Shown piece after piece: positions 2,849 through 9,015 of a stretch of DNA of 13,693 nucleotides. This DNA is from a virus: the UHGV virus genome UHGV-0482402. One strand, given 5' to 3'. The position numbers and the translations under genes are program-made. Every line of letters starts with the position of its first letter. Position 1 is the first letter of the stretch. The notes below the pieces were generated by a model. That model was not told where the DNA came from. It searched no databases and worked only from the letters and a program-made list of their open reading frames with translations.

Positions 2849-3097
2849 ATGCGTATTGAGATCTGCATAGCCAAAGAAAAAATGACTAAAATGCCAACCG
2901 GTGCTGTGGATGCGTTAAAGGAAGAATTAACTCGGCGCATCAGTAAGCGTTATGACGATGTAGAAGTGATCGTAAAAGCCACCAGCAATGATGGGCTTTC
3001 TGTTACACGCACAGCAGATAAGGATTCTGCAAAAACATTTGTTCAGGAGACTCTGAAAGATACCTGGGAGTCTGCTGACGAGTGGTTTGTTCACTAA
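2849..3097 (+). CDS. dinI: DinI-family protein (RecA co-protease modulator)
   Basis: The 82-aa translation [37 protein letters not shown]...[16 protein letters not shown] aligns along its length with E. coli DinI as recalled (MRIEVTIAK...ETWESADDWFVSE). LexA boxes lie upstream. Confidence 0.85.
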
Positions 3098-3502: not shown

Positions 3503-6088
3503 CTACTCTATCTCTTTTGCTTTTTTAATTATCAATTCAAGCTCTGTTAAACGAGATTCAATACGTTCACACCTTCTTCGCTGGAATGCAGCCTCCAACC
3601 ACAAACATTCATCTGGACGCAATCCCCAACGCTCACCAGCATGTACAACCAGTTCCGTGTCACCAGTATCGTATTCTTCAAAGTATTCGTGAACGATGTC
3701 TTCTCCTTCAGGGGATTTAGCTATAAATGACACCTTGCGCTGTGCCATTACAGGTTGGTACTCATCATCCCATTTATCATGACATAGCAAGCCAAATCTT
3801 GTTCCATCTATCCCCTTTGCAAGAAACGCATCTCTTACCTGCTGTGCAATTGCTCCGAAATGCCAACGAGCAGTATCCGAACCTTTAGCCTTAATATCGG
3901 ACAACCACTGGTAAACGATAATATTTACGTCACCCCATGCGTCAAGAATTGCATCCTGATCCACCTCCATGATTTCTGAAAGTTGCTCTACTGTCAGTGG
4001 CTTTGTTTTCAATGTCTGGTCTGAAGTATTTATTGCCCCATTAGTTGCATATACTTGCGTCCACCGTTTAGATGATGTCCCACATGATGACGTATTATCT
4101 TTATTAGCACTTATATAGCCATTAACCTCCGCTGACTGACCGATATACGAATATGAAGATGTTGATAAGGGAGATTTAAATATCCATTGAGCATTGGTAA
4201 AGTCATAAATACCGGTATCACCTTTTTCACTAACATGAAAAGTTACATTCCGTAACGTATTCTTTGCATCATAACGGGCGGCTTGTGTTGTTGCCCTCGA
4301 AACAGTGAATCCTTTGTCATCAAGGTTTGCCTGCTCTATGACTTCACCACCAGGCATAATTTTACCAAGGCTTAACAAACCAGAGTTAGTGACAATATCA
4401 TGGGTTGAATCAATGATAATACCAGGCTGATTTCTTGATGTTGTTTTTACATGCATTACCTGTTGTGGCATTAATGTGTAAAATGTAGTTTCTCGCCCAC
4501 TATCACCATCTGGTATGCCATTTGTATTCCCCATTACAAGGTCATACCCACCTGCAATCATACGGAAAAACATTGCTTCTGGTTCATATGTAAGATTGCT
4601 AACATCTGGCGTTCCGGTATCATTTGGATCTGCTATTTCATAGGCTCTTCCTGCACCTGCCTGTATTTGCTGCACCCCAAGATAAACACCATCAAGTGTG
4701 TACTGATGCAAATATTTTCTGGTTGAAGAATATGCAGATCCAGCCTGACAAAAATAAATAGCAGTACCGTCACACGCAACTGTTTGCATATCCCTCACAA
4801 AATCGGCAATTTCAAATTCAAAAGTTGCTTCATTACGATAATCGTAATTGTACGCCTGCGGGTTAATAAATTTGCTGGTATCAAATACTTTTACATAATA
4901 GCGAATTTGATCTGGTGTTGATGGGCTCTCACCAGGGCCAACATAACGTTTTGCTGTAGTAATCAGCCATCGACTCATAGGGTCGGTGCATAAAACATTT
5001 ACCTGATTCTCGTAACCATCTTCCCATATGAGAAAAAACTCTGGTTCAATTTCACCACCATCAGTAGGGGTGAATCTGGTGATATACTTTGCGCGATCCT
5101 CTCCTTTAGCTGTGCCAGCTAACCCCCATATCTGTAACTGGCCTCTTGTGTTACGAAAACCAACGCGCCCTATGGTTAAACCAAGACATTGATGTCCTAA
5201 TTCTCTACTACCTTTAGTCTCCCAAAGAGGAGTTAACTCTTCATTCCCAAACCAATTATAAGCAACAACTTTATTAACTTCATCACCAGAACTAACGCTG
5301 CCACTCACATTTACCAAGCAATAAAGAACACTGTCATAATAATCAAGAACAGCACCCTGTATGACAGTATTTTTAATTGTTGCCAGTCGCAACCCTGACT
5401 TAACATGATTAGGAGTAGAAGGTCTGAAACCTGTATACATCCCCTTTTTTATAGTTTGTATTCTTTTTTCAGTAAAATCAGCATCTGGCAGTAATCGATT
5501 CTCTGTGCGAAAATAGCCATTTATATACTTATTTCCATCAAAAACTTGATCTGTTATATATGTATTACCCCTTAGATCAACAATCCTTCCTGTGATTTGT
5601 TTTTCTAACTCTTGAAAAGATAATGTGTCATCGGTGATGCCATCACCTTTTGCTCCCCATCCGCGAGGGTCAGCGTCATCACGCCACCGAGACATCTGCA
5701 ATTCATGATATTTTTTAGCACCTTCCGGGTCTTCTAATTGTTGTCTTAATTGGTCTGGATCGTACTTAAGCACATTCGGAAAATAGAACTGCTGCGTACC
5801 ATATGCATCGTAAACAGCCATAGAATGGCCTTGCACGGTAACGAATTTGGAAATCTGTCCGTTGTATACCGGGTATCCAGCAGCATTGATAACGATTGGC
5901 TGTGGCACCTGAACATAAGTACCATCTTCTCGTTCCAGATATACTGGAATCTGGTTTTCTGGATTTACCGGATCTGTGTCAATCTTACCGATATAAATTT
6001 TTCCATTTGCTACGGTTTTAAAAGAGCTAGCCATTGTGAAGAGTTGCGATGGCATACCTATCACAACATTTGGGGTTATATCAGGCAT
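3503..6088 (-). CDS. tailspike protein: P22 gp9-type head-binding domain, central pectate-lyase-type beta-helix (putative polysaccharide depolymerase) and C-terminal S74-type intramolecular chaperone
   Basis: The N-terminus [50 protein letters not shown]...[13 protein letters not shown]...NVLKYDPDQ matches the recalled P22 tailspike N-terminus (MTDITANVVV...[27 protein letters not shown]...[13 protein letters not shown]...NVLKYDPDQ). [13 protein letters not shown] beta-helix signature follows. The C-terminal roughly 173 aa begin at NTSDQTLK (Ser codon at 4022-4024) and end in a coiled coil. The start is placed at the ATG at 6088 (AGGA 8 nt upstream), not at the track start 6181. Confidence 0.9.
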
Positions 6089-6430
6089 ATTAGTCATCCT
6101 GTTTGAAGATTTAGATATTGAAGAAAACGGAATGACTGCAGACAACGATGCAATTGTTTTGAAAAATAACCTTCTATTCATTTAAAAACCATGCAACATG
6201 AACAAAACGATTATTTTACAATACTCAAGAATCTTGATCAACAGGCATATTATTTATGCGCTTAATGCGTCACTTACAAAAATAAAAACAAGTAATACCT
6301 TTATTCCTATCGTCCATGATTTTTATTTTCAAACATTATTAAATAACAATTCCTATTTATAATATCTGTCATTTAATTTGCTCCAGATACAAGTAATCGC
6401 TGCAGCGTGGCTACGGTGAATTTTGGGCAT

Positions 6431-6472: not shown

Positions 6473-7375
6473 TCAGTAGTTATGTACTGAAGGAGGTAAT
6501 TCTTTATTCTTAAGTCTCATCCATGCGGAAAGATTCGTTGGTCCATCTGGCTCATTGATATCAACATCTCGTGTGTGATTGATTAAAACGTCTCTCGCCA
6601 TTCCAATAACATACGAGAACTCATGACCGTAGTCGTAGCATCTGCCGGAATAGTTAGACTGAATTTGTTTTAGCGCCGGATACAGTTCGCGGAATAATGC
6701 CTGTGAGCGGTTGGCATAATCCCATAACCATACAAGGCTGTTTGCTTCTTTTGCAGAAAGCTCGTTGGTTTTCTTCTCTTGTTTGCCGATGAATTCGCCT
6801 TCAAGCACTACCCTGTGGATGTACTCTACGGCTTGCGGTATCTGAGACGCATCAAGCTCTTCAATACTTTCCACATTGAAACGCTGATGAATCATTGCAT
6901 AAGCTTCTGGGTACATTAGATGCTTTTTGCTGACCAGCATATTTACAGCATCACGAAGCGGAGTCCTGTCATCAACAGATGTTTTCTTACGTGCATTTTC
7001 TGCCTCTCCCTTTGTCCAGTAGTCATGCAGCACAGTAAAGCATTCTTCCTGGTACTGAATCAGTTTATCGCGGATGTCAGCACGAACTTTCTCAGGGTTG
7101 ATGCTGAACAGCCATCCATTTAACTTCTTCAAAGGAAGGCAGAGTAGCTTACGAAGCTTACCATCAGCGGCAACCATGTTCATATGAACACAGTTGAATT
7201 TGCTAATCTGCTTCATGAGTTTTGTTTGCTGCGTTGACCAGCTCATTCCAAGGTTTTCAACGATTGGCTTCATCGCAACATATGCAACTCCGGCAGCCAT
7301 GGCGGTGATAATTTGCTGACCGTTGAATGGTACGTAAGAGGTGTTCACTGCTTCTAAAATTGCTATACTATTCAT
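6473..7375 (-). CDS. ant: antirepressor Ant
   Basis: 300 aa from the ATG at 7375 ([29 protein letters not shown]...). GGAG lies upstream. It is immediately downstream of an Arc-like RHH gene and upstream of the tailspike, the same order as P22 arc-ant-gene 9. The track start at 7441 is a TTG that overlaps arc. Confidence 0.8.
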
Positions 7376-7447
7376 GTTGGTTTTTCTCCACGGATTTACT
7401 GACAACCGAAGCCCTGACTGTTCCCGCAGTTGGGGCTTCAACTTTTT
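7376..7447 (+). ncRNA. candidate sar-like antisense RNA covering the ant ribosome-binding site
   Basis: A plus-strand -10-like TATACT at 7364-7369 sits inside the first ant codons. A plus-strand intrinsic terminator follows: stem GAAGCCC (7408-7414) and GGGCTTC (7433-7439) with an inner ACTG/CAGT pairing, then AACTTTTT. The roughly 70-nt product would be antisense to the ant Shine-Dalgarno and start codon, like P22 sar. Confidence 0.4.
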
Positions 7448-7578
7448 AGGCTGCGAATAAGACGCTGCACTATTTCTGAATTTAAAGACCTGCCCTCCTC
7501 CTTAGCCTTTTCCTTCAATTTTTCTTTAATCTCTGGCGGGATACGAATCCCTAATGGAGCGATGTCTCTAACTTTCAT
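7438..7578 (-). CDS. arc: Arc-like ribbon-helix-helix repressor (46 aa)
   Basis: Minus-strand ORF missing from the track: [46 protein letters not shown]. It has the RHH signature (N-terminal beta-strand, then G-R-S-hNSEI) and lies directly upstream of ant. The Shine-Dalgarno is TGAGGGG. Confidence 0.7.
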
Positions 7579-7591
7579 TTCCCCTCACTTG

Positions 7592-7677
7592 CTACACCGT
7601 GATAACTAAATACTACACCGTGTTTATTTAAAGTCAAAATTTTTTTGCCTACACTGTGTAGCTATGCACAGCGTGCA
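7592..7677. promoter_or_regulatory. divergent immI control region with operator-like repeats
   Basis: CTACACCGTG occurs at 7592-7601 and again at 7613-7622. A perfect 13-bp palindrome CTACACTGTGTAG sits at 7649-7661 and a second, TGCACAGCGTGCA, at 7665-7677. All lie between the divergent arc (minus) and RHH-1 (plus) start codons. Confidence 0.45.
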
Positions 7678-7686
7678 GGAGGAGAA

Positions 7687-7926
7687 ATGAAAGGTGCAAG
7701 AGATATCAGTCCATTGGGGATTAGGATTCCAGACTATTTAAAGAAACGCATTCAGCAAGAAGCGGATAAAAACGGCAGATCAATGAACTCAGAGATCGTG
7801 CTTATCCTTCAAAAACATGTTGATAATCTTGATGGCTCTCGCTCACTTGAAGGATTCGCTAACCAAGAAGCTGATAAATTCAAAGAGGCGCTACTTGAGA
7901 CGCTAAAGACCATGTATGGTAAATAA
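7687..7926 (+). CDS. ribbon-helix-helix repressor, Mnt-like architecture (RHH plus C-terminal helical oligomerisation tail), paralogue 1
   Basis: ATG at 7687 follows GGAGGAG. Translation is MKGARDISPLGIRIPDYLKKRIQQEADKNGRSMNSEIVLILQKH...EADKFKEALLETLKTMYGK. The N-terminal strand (RDISPLGIRIP) is nearly identical to that of the divergent Arc-like protein ([11 protein letters not shown]). Confidence 0.7.
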   Translation: MKGARDISPLGIRIPDYLKKRIQQEADKNGRSMNSEIVLILQKHVDNLDGSRSLEGFANQEADKFKEALLETLKTMYGK

Positions 7927-7943
7927 TTATTCAGGATGTGCCG

Positions 7944-8201
7944 ATGTCTGATCGTAAGTACAAAAACCCTCAAGTGAATCTGAGGCTTCCTGTAGAGATA
8001 AAGGAACGTCTTATTGAACTGGCTGAGGCTAATTCTCGTTCATTAAATGCTGAGATGGTCGCGGCACTTGAAGCGTGGACAGAAAAAAATAAACACATTC
8101 AAGCACTAGACCTTGCAACTATAGCATCACGATTGATAGATCTTGAACATGATGTTGAGAAGTTGAAATGCATGTATAGCAACAATAAAGACGAAAGTTA
8201 G
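7944..8201 (+). CDS. ribbon-helix-helix repressor with Arc-type N-terminal strand and a C-terminal coiled-coil extension, paralogue 2
   Basis: ATG at 7944 is 7 nt after AGGA. Translation is MSDRKYKNPQVNLRLPVEIKERLIELAEANSRSLNAEMVAALEAW..., and its N-terminus resembles recalled P22 Arc (..PQFNLRWPREV..). Confidence 0.65.
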   Translation: MSDRKYKNPQVNLRLPVEIKERLIELAEANSRSLNAEMVAALEAWTEKNKHIQALDLATIASRLIDLEHDVEKLKCMYSNNKDES

Positions 8202-8224: not shown

Positions 8225-8479
8225 ATGGCTAGAGACGATCCGCACTTTAACTTCCGTATGCCTTTGGAAGTAAGAGAAAAATTGAAATTAAGAGCAGAGG
8301 CTAACGGAAGGTCAATGAACTCAGAGTTATTACAAATCGTTCAGGATGCGCTATCAAAACCATCACCGATTGCAGGCTATCGCGACGATGCTGAACGCTT
8401 GGCTGATCAGCAAGCAGAGCAGTTCAAGGCCGTTGTGTTTGAGACACTTAAAAAGATTTATGGCAAGGATGAAAAATAA
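8225..8479 (+). CDS. mnt: Mnt repressor orthologue (ribbon-helix-helix)
   Basis: MARDDPHFNFRMPLEVREKLKLRAEANGRSMNSELLQIVQDALSKPSP... is near-identical over the N-terminal half to recalled P22 Mnt (MARDDPHFNFRMPMEVREKLKFRAEANGRSMNSELLQIVQDALSKPSP...). GGAG lies 7 nt upstream. Confidence 0.85.
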   Translation: MARDDPHFNFRMPLEVREKLKLRAEANGRSMNSELLQIVQDALSKPSPIAGYRDDAERLADQQAEQFKAVVFETLKKIYGKDEK

Positions 8480-9015
8480 TGCTGCACACAATTCATTTCT
8501 TATGCCCCGTTAACACTGCCACTGTTGGGCAACTTCAGAACCACTGTCTCACCGCATTATCTCAAGGCGCAACTGAATTAAATATCCATATATCAAGTCA
8601 GGGAGGGGAAACTGCCGCTGGCTTTACTGCGTATAACTTTCTTAAGTCACTCCCTGTTACCGTTAGAACTCACAACATAAGCAATGTTGAATCCATAGCT
8701 AATATCGTTTTCCTGGCTGGCTCAGAACGTTTCGCAAACCCATTATCAAGATTCCTGTTACATCCTCTATTATGGTGCTTTGCCTCCCCAGCCGCCGACC
8801 ATGCCAGATTGAGAGAGTACGGGAAATGCCTCGATAACGATCTTGATCGCTTCGTTGAGACGTTCAATATCGACATCGGAACCCATATTAGGTGGGCATC
8901 CCTGATAGCAGACTCGACCATTTTGGATGCTAACAAGGCTCTTGAGCATGGCATAATTAATTCCATAAAAACTGCAAGGCTGGTATCCAATCAGGCAAAC
9001 TGGTGGGTTGTTTGA
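8479..9015 (+). CDS. ClpP-like serine peptidase (ClpP/crotonase fold), translationally coupled to mnt
   Basis: Its ATG overlaps the mnt stop (TAATG). LNIHISSQGGETAAGFTAYNF...NVESIANIVFLAGSERFANPLSRFLLHP lines up with recalled E. coli ClpP ([21 protein letters not shown]...[32 protein letters not shown]). Candidate triad residues are the Ser in ESIAN, the His in LLHP and a downstream Asp in IADSTILD. Confidence 0.65.
   Translation: MLHTIHFLCPVNTATVGQLQNHCLTALSQGATELNIHISSQGGETAAGFTAYNFLKSLPVTVRTHNISNVESIANIVFLAGSERFANPLSRFLLHPLLWCFASPAADHARLREYGKCLDNDLDRFVETFNIDIGTHIRWASLIADSTILDANKALEHGIINSIKTARLVSNQANWWVV

Follow-up and report, generated by a model that had tools for sequence, protein, structure and literature searches.

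Which proteins act on the divergent control region of an antirepressor locus of the P22 type, and through how many kinds of operator? The question is raised by UHGV virus genome UHGV-0482402, analyzed here as a stretch of 13,693 nucleotides (the window), in which a 108-bp intergenic region (7579–7686) separates two genes for small ribbon-helix-helix (RHH) proteins. One of them, here called the Arc-position gene, precedes the antirepressor gene ant; the other, RHH-1, is transcribed divergently and takes the position of mnt in phage P22. An earlier note on this DNA had described operator-like repeats and palindromes between the two genes and had assigned them to two operator types serving two RHH specificity classes. 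Our analysis points instead to one motif present three times: the sites O1, O2, and O3 are probably variant Mnt-type operators of a P22-type immI control region, bound by the Arc-position protein and RHH-1.

The three sites form one family with the unit CTACAC-N-GTG and overlap a leftward sigma-70 promoter that is clear and conserved and a divergent rightward one that is only a candidate. The elements are arranged as follows.

7592–7604: site O1, CTACACCGTGATA, with a perfect left half-site and GTG alone as the right half, covering roughly positions −1 to +12 relative to the leftward ant promoter.
7613–7625: site O2, CTACACCGTGTTT, in the spacer of the leftward promoter and overlapping its −10 hexamer.
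7649–7661: site O3, CTACACTGTGTAG, a perfect 13-bp palindrome made of two inverted half-sites and one central base.
7610–7637, minus strand: sigma-70-type promoter of the Arc-position gene and ant (the Pant analogue), with 9 of 12 matches in a consensus scan.
7627–7655, plus strand: candidate rightward promoter of RHH-1, with −35 TTTAAA (7627–7632), a 17-bp spacer, and −10 TACACT (7650–7655) inside O3.
7638–7646: A/T tract AATTTTTTT, between O2 and O3, immediately upstream of the −35 of the leftward promoter.

Both the two direct copies of CTACACCGTG (7592–7601 and 7613–7622, 21 bp apart) and the perfect palindrome sharing their CTACAC half-site had been reported in the earlier note, and both are present. 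The left arms of O1 and O2 are perfect and their right arms weakened, continuing as GTGATA in O1 and GTGTTT in O2. As a family, the three CTACAC sites lie far beyond chance. Of 20,000 dinucleotide-preserving shuffles of the intergenic region, only one contained some 10-mer (one position being free) in triplicate, and with up to one mismatch allowed the pattern gives seven matches in the window against 1.59 expected. A lone 6+6 palindrome, by comparison, would be weak evidence: owing to the high A/T content of the region, 6% of shuffles contain one. Outside the intergenic region, the only exact match to the CTACAC pattern in the window is CTACACTGTG at 2829–2838; we rejected it as a further operator, since a canonical LexA box (TACTGTATACAAACACAGT, 2819–2837) ends in it. 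This box precedes a DinI-like ORF (2849–3097; NCBIfam DNA damage-inducible protein I, 2e-20), and both lie downstream of a tyrosine-integrase-like ORF (1245–2558). A LexA (SOS) box of the form CTGT-N8-ACAG within the control region itself was likewise rejected, given that the gap between its CTGT (7654) and ACAG (7668) is 10 nt instead of 8 and that this arrangement is unconserved.

The leftward promoter, the sole one reported by the consensus scan, consists of −35 TTGACT (7637–7632), a 16-bp spacer, and −10 TAGTAT (7615–7610), with a predicted start at about 7603. Relative to it, O3 is centered at about −52. To follow these elements, we compared nine loci from Escherichia, Salmonella, Serratia, Pluralibacter, Tatumella, and metagenomes, whose RHH-1 proteins are 61%–97% identical. 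All three sites are kept in the nine loci, as the earlier note would have it for genuine operators in related phages. O3 is invariant at 13 of 13 positions, and so is the leftward −35 at 6 of 6; O2 shows a mean pairwise identity of 85%, with TACAC-N-GTG invariant and the central base C or G, and O1 one of 70%. The spacing is kept as well, with O1 and O2 21 bp apart in eight loci and 22 bp in the ninth, and O2 and O3 36 bp apart in all. Across the sites, the central base varies freely (C, G, or T), which fits the dyad of a site for a symmetric protein. With an approximate sigma-70 matrix, TTGACT-16-TAGTAT was the top minus-strand candidate in 9/9 loci and TTTAAA-17-TACACT the best plus-strand candidate in 8/9. 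The A/T tract, which recurs as a T-run in eight of the nine, may be a UP-element-like or bent segment. A face-to-face rightward promoter as in P22, with its −10 just left of AGTCAA, scored poorly and was rejected.

The genes around this region identify the locus. The window holds a complete P22-type immI (antirepressor) module, in which a small Arc-family RHH gene lies ahead of ant in the same operon, sar RNA is found at the arc–ant junction, and a Mnt-type repressor with an RHH domain and a C-terminal helix is encoded divergently. All four small ORFs match Pfam Arc/RHH.

6473–7375, minus strand: ant, the antirepressor gene and regulated target (Pfam P22_AR_N 4e-45, P22_AR_C 6e-30).
7376–7443, plus strand: sar antisense RNA (Rfam RF00262, scoring 95.6 bits where the gathering cutoff is 43); the terminator hairpin lies at 7408–7439.
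7438–7578, minus strand: Arc-position repressor gene, 46 aa (Pfam Arc 5e-13), an RHH protein without a C-terminal domain.
7687–7926, plus strand: RHH-1, the Mnt-position repressor, 79 aa, with strand RDISPLGIRIP.
7944–8201, plus strand: RHH-2, with the Arc-like strand PQVNLRLP.
8225–8479, plus strand: RHH-3, the true Mnt homologue, with strand PHFNFRMP.

The sar RNA overlaps the ribosome-binding region of ant and spans the arc–ant junction, as it does in P22. At the two edges of the control region, the Arc-position gene and RHH-1 begin alike: their Shine-Dalgarno sequences together with their first codons form a 15-nt inverted repeat (7572–7586 and 7679–7693, 93% complementary), which gives the 5′ ends of the two genes the look of mirror-image paralogues.

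The two repressors are alike where DNA would be read. The Arc-position protein and the N-terminus of RHH-1 share 57% identity over 35 aa and the recognition strand R-D-I-(A/S)-P-L-G-I-R-I-P. Because this strand is shared, they form one specificity class, not two. RHH-1 matches P22 Mnt (PDB 1mnt) over nearly its full length (residues 4–74, E=4.6e-5), with 33% identity over 80 aa. In the HMMER alignment of ARDISPLGIRIP with Mnt ARDDPHFNFRMP, both Arg residues are kept, and His6 is replaced by Pro and Asn8 by Gly. A His6-to-Pro change is reportedly the classical altered-specificity mutation of Mnt (Youderian et al. 1983), a parallel that serves here as a lead only. The AlphaFold model of RHH-1 has helices at 16–29, 33–51, and 54–77, and the last, C-terminal one is predicted to correspond to the tetramerization domain of Mnt. 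Foldseek with this model returned generic RHH matches only (E ≥0.2), and the sequence match to 1mnt is the better evidence. In Mnt, the C-terminal domain makes the protein a tetramer (PMC3325190).

If the shared strand reads the CTACAC motif, strand and motif should change together. One genome per species was scanned with the RHH-1 alignment, which gave 29 further loci, and all loci were pooled. The hexamer CTACAC/GTGTAG was found within 150 bp upstream of 13 of the 16 Mnt-position genes with a P-x-G-[IVL]-R strand, as opposed to 0/24 loci with other strands (Fisher p = 4.7e-8, uncorrected for phylogeny). Where Ser or Thr stands in place of Gly, palindromes TTGATATCAA or GTGATATCAC occupy the position of O3. 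The reverse search gave the same pairing: all 23 IMG/VR contigs found by TACACNGTG-N26-CTACACTGTGTAG alone have an RHH gene with P-x-G-[IVL]-R immediately downstream. In the more distant of these 23, each of the three or four sites is a complete CTACAC-N-GTGTAG palindrome. Xenorhabdus has direct repeats of the GTGTAG half-site, 11 bp apart, an arrangement which points to the 6-bp half-site as the recognized unit. Conserved sequence and spacing, overlap with promoters, and covariation with the repressor β-strand thus bear out the operator-like character that the earlier note had ascribed to the CTACAC repeats.

How does this control region compare with that of P22? The order and orientation of genes are the same, running from ant through sar and a small RHH gene to a divergent control region and a Mnt-type RHH gene. 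The proteins are homologous, the Arc-position protein being 43% identical to Arc over 37 aa. Both regions have the same strong leftward promoter, here aligning with P22 Pant, and in both its spacer holds one site and its start another; in the alignment with P22 suggested in the earlier note, O1 is positioned like Omnt and O2 like Oarc. The operators themselves differ. P22 pairs two operators with two strands, a 17-bp Omnt with PHFNFRMP and a 21-bp Oarc with PQFNLRWP, whereas one motif, present three times, goes with one strand here, and no separate Omnt and Oarc for two specificities were found in the window. P22's own operators are absent, the intergenic region is 108 bp long against 90 bp in P22, and O3, the extra perfect site upstream of the −35, is without a counterpart in P22. 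The TAGA-N5-TCTA arrangement of Arc was not found in the intergenic region; the window has six one-mismatch matches to it against 4.4 expected, none of them intergenic.

The kinship with the Mnt operator is real, and it raises the best-surviving alternative. P22 Omnt reads AGGTCCACCGTGGACCT (X01916), so that the Omnt center which the earlier note named on seeing the CACGGTG core was correct. For Mnt, GTGGACC has been published as the optimal half-site (PMC2726951). The architecture of O3 is the same, with inverted 6–7-bp half-sites around one free base and a CAC-N-GTG core; O1 and O2 are asymmetric and show the left half and the core, their right half being GTG alone. The half-site here, GTGTAG(C/G), agrees with that of Mnt at 5/7 positions, with the same A at position 5 and differences at positions 4 and 6 (GTGTAGC versus GTGGACC), and in the predicted binder Pro and Gly take the places of Mnt His6 and Asn8. 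The main binder might then be RHH-3, the Mnt homologue, rather than RHH-1 or the Arc-position protein, with the CTACAC sites as divergent functional copies of Omnt. The common core, the five matching positions per half-site, and the alignment of O1 with Omnt would suit this view, as would RHH-3 itself, which is 80% identical to P22 Mnt and identical to it from the N-terminus through the recognition strand. However, the sites are fully conserved in at least eight loci without a Mnt homologue, and they covary with P-x-G-[IVL]-R, not with PHFNFRMP. Moreover, the half-site GTGGACC is not what the sites contain, and even with three mismatches allowed the 15-bp Omnt has no match in the window. A single substitution in the Mnt half-site can lower affinity by as much as about 70-fold (PMC2726951), and each half-site here deviates at two positions. 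We therefore consider RHH-3 an improbable main binder.

The core shared with Omnt recurs beyond these phages. Distant Arc/Mnt-like genes of Erwinia, Pectobacterium, Acetobacter, Rhodobacter, Duganella, and Rhizobium are preceded by palindromes with a CAC-N-GTG core, and in TGTCACCGTGACA, GCACACCGTGTGC, ACCCCACCGTGGGGT, and CGTATCACTGTGATACG (L028, L030, L031, L033, L036, and L039) the outer bases differ by protein. CAC-N-GTG with variable outer bases is thus a possible family-wide recognition pattern, and through its recurrence in such distant loci the kinship with Mnt seen in the earlier note would generalize across the family.

Are there, then, two operator types? The second palindrome which the earlier note had described just before the ribosome-binding site of RHH-1, and had judged unrelated to the first, is indeed there, but its significance did not hold up.

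7665–7677: second palindrome, TGCACAGCGTGCA (TGCAC-AGC-GTGCA), abutting the AGGAGG Shine-Dalgarno of RHH-1.

Its arms are only 5 bp long, its center AGC is non-symmetric, and at least one 5+5 palindrome (spacer up to 3 nt) arises in 36% of shuffles, so that it does not exceed chance. Nowhere in the region is conservation lower than in the 16 nt following O3, which hold it (36% mean pairwise identity over the nine loci), and in PhiR12 a 1-nt insertion disrupts it. Most likely, TGCACAGCGTGCA is a chance occurrence; at best it may be a decayed fourth site of the CTACAC type, read as GCACAG-C-GTGCAG with 8 of 12 matches. Better fourth sites stand at this place in relatives, namely CTACAGCGTGCAG in PhiR12, ATACACTGCGTAG in Tatumella, and TTACACGGTGTAG in L050.

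It might still be argued that the CTACAC family serves one RHH class and TGCAC-N3-GTGCA a second, for example RHH-2 or RHH-3. The palindrome does lie between the likely start site of RHH-1 and its ribosome-binding site, it is kept in the closest relatives (L047 and L065) and nearly so in L056, L060, and L068, and the window encodes four RHH proteins with three different strands. Against this stand the chance-level frequency and poor conservation just described, and the fit of TGCACAGCGTGCA to neither the Mnt half-site GTGGACC nor the TAGA boxes of Arc. In addition, the O1–O3 region is identical in many loci which have only the Arc-position gene and RHH-1 and neither RHH-2 nor RHH-3, and the latter two came with a CUS-3-like module whose control region is absent here. 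A second operator class is thus very improbable, and the assignment of two operator types to two specificity classes fails on its other side as well, given the single strand shared by the Arc-position protein and RHH-1.

The origin of RHH-2 and RHH-3 can be traced by comparison with phage CUS-3. The two 'mnt' genes of CUS-3 are near-identical counterparts of RHH-2 and RHH-3, and its module is placed likewise, with the tailspike gene on one side and gene 16 on the other. From a junction at about 7917–7943, between the stop of RHH-1 and the start of RHH-2, the onward sequence matches CUS-3 just upstream of its first 'mnt' gene, and RHH-1 is shortened at this junction to 79 aa, compared with 82 aa in relatives. 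Among 5,426 complete E. coli genomes, a single one has the junction, and two IMG/VR contigs, L047 and L065, also show the RHH-1/RHH-2 arrangement. RHH-2 and RHH-3 thus appear to have entered by recombination from a CUS-3-like module, minus its control region, and are predicted to be co-transcribed behind RHH-1. In the P22-like prophages of Serratia, Pluralibacter, Tatumella, and Salmonella, and in several metagenomic contigs, the RHH-1 homologue sits in the Mnt position and is usually the sole divergent RHH gene. The C-terminus of RHH-2 is a hybrid (...DVETLKTMYAKDEK) in the prophage of E. coli MS 196-1. These sequences suggest that the conserved 3′ end of Mnt-family genes is a recombination linker which shuffles DNA-binding domains.

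CUS-3 has the same layout of the leftward promoter with two direct repeats 21 bp apart at the same promoter positions; its repeats are GGTACGCAT instead, arranged as GGTACGCAT-N-ATAGT (L001, 2905–2941), and are absent from the window. A search of the 13.7-kb window for Mnt-type and Arc-type operators found no cognate operator for RHH-2 or RHH-3; the two proteins may provide immunity to antirepressor modules belonging to other immI types. CUS-3 is stated to lack arc (PMC2629481). Its sequence (L001) contains an unannotated Arc-like ORF (MKVKTLRMPEKLEK...) upstream of ant, at 2745–2888 on the minus strand, of which the strand differs from that seen here (KVKTLRMP). Among P22-like phages the 'ant moron' varies widely, and experimental work exists for the P22 version alone (Villafane et al. 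2008, PMC2629481).

The module as a whole is also found elsewhere. With ant, the Arc-position gene, O1–O3, RHH-1, and a Clp gene, it sits among the tail-assembly genes (K/I and L) of lambda-like siphoviruses, as in L002 (PhiR12_1) and L046 (the MS 196-1 prophage, whose arrangement differs from that of the window). Its presence in both this tail cluster and P22-like podovirus prophages indicates that it moves between podovirus and siphovirus late operons. It is highly unlikely that the repeats are merely promoter or architectural elements, or recombination 'boundary' sequences conserved since the module moves whole: although the module is mobile, the CUS-3 annotation marks 'boundary sequences' in this area, and O3 overlaps a possible −10 hexamer, the conservation is patchy and tracks the motif, with sites and hexamers kept and adjacent bases varying at the same evolutionary distance; the central base varies as expected of a dyad-symmetric protein site; half-sites occur in other arrangements, direct in Xenorhabdus and inverted in L012; and the motif switches when the protein strand switches.

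With O1–O3 read as operators of the Arc-position protein and RHH-1, a putative model of the switch can be proposed. The two binders would be supplied by the two promoters, the 46-aa Arc-position protein from the ant promoter itself and the Mnt-like RHH-1 from the divergent one. A repressor occupying O2, in the spacer and over the −10, together with O1 at the start, two helical turns away, would block RNA polymerase and keep ant off. In the lysogen, RHH-1 would repress the leftward promoter, by analogy to Mnt in P22; after infection, the Arc-position protein would provide negative feedback, by analogy to Arc. Binding of O3, over the likely −10 of RHH-1, would lead to autoregulation of the RHH-1 operon. 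Since both repressors share one strand, this circuit would be unlike the two-operator logic of P22, and discrimination between them would rest on oligomeric state and graded site strength, O3 being complete and the right halves of O1 and O2 weakened.

Several points weigh against this model or narrow it. Its support is comparative throughout, and several of the loci behind the uncorrected Fisher test are close relatives. Three loci with a P-F-G strand lack the exact hexamer; all three have Phe at x, and two of them carry the near-variants TTACACTGTGATA and CTACATCATGTAG. The best site, O3, lies upstream of the −35 of the ant promoter and hence cannot alone explain repression of ant; it is placed where a UP element or the C-terminal domain of the polymerase alpha subunit would act. 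The distance of 36 bp between O2 and O3, about 3.4 turns, puts these two sites out of phase for simple cooperative binding. The rightward promoter matches just 8 of 12 consensus positions, a weak score under the threshold of the consensus scan and ranked with an approximate matrix, and so stays a candidate. Finally, RHH-3 shares the core of its motif with these sites, and some cross-binding is possible.

A fuller version of the model can be offered only tentatively, and we regard it as rather doubtful in its entirety. Here the region would be a single-specificity immI switch, in which a presumed dimer for feedback and a presumed tetramer for maintenance act on the same half-site and the outcome is decided only by oligomeric state, site strength, and the 21/36-bp phasing. 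RHH-2 and the true Mnt would be decoy-free 'cross-immunity' factors silencing the antirepressor genes of incoming phages, and Gly versus Ser/Thr at the position of Mnt Asn8 would switch the operator from CTACAC-N-GTGTAG to TTGATATCAA.

Outside the control region, two neighbors of the module may be added.

8479–9015, plus strand: ClpP-like protease ORF (Pfam CLP_protease 2e-11), the start of which overlaps the stop of the last Mnt-family gene.
3503–6181, minus strand: tailspike ORF with a P22-type head-binding N-terminus, preceded in the longest ORF by about 30 extra codons.

A ClpP-like partner also follows RHH-1 in PhiR12, in the Salmonella locus L007, and in many IMG/VR contigs. The true start of the tailspike is probably an internal Met. 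The best coverage of the window by any complete E. coli genome is 53%, which makes the window a mosaic.

In summary, the operator prediction is solid and testable rather than surprising. We found no description of this CTACAC operator/repressor type. P22 Arc and Mnt are textbook models of β-sheet DNA recognition, and the present region represents a natural, well-conserved alternative to this protein/operator pair. It further illustrates how one prophage comes to hold a stack of repressors that differ in specificity, through recombination at the conserved 3′ ends of Mnt-family genes. The family series of strand/operator pairs with a CAC-N-GTG core could be used to derive recognition rules and orthogonal small repressors, and the locus suggests a different circuit logic, in which one operator motif would serve both the maintenance and the feedback repressor.

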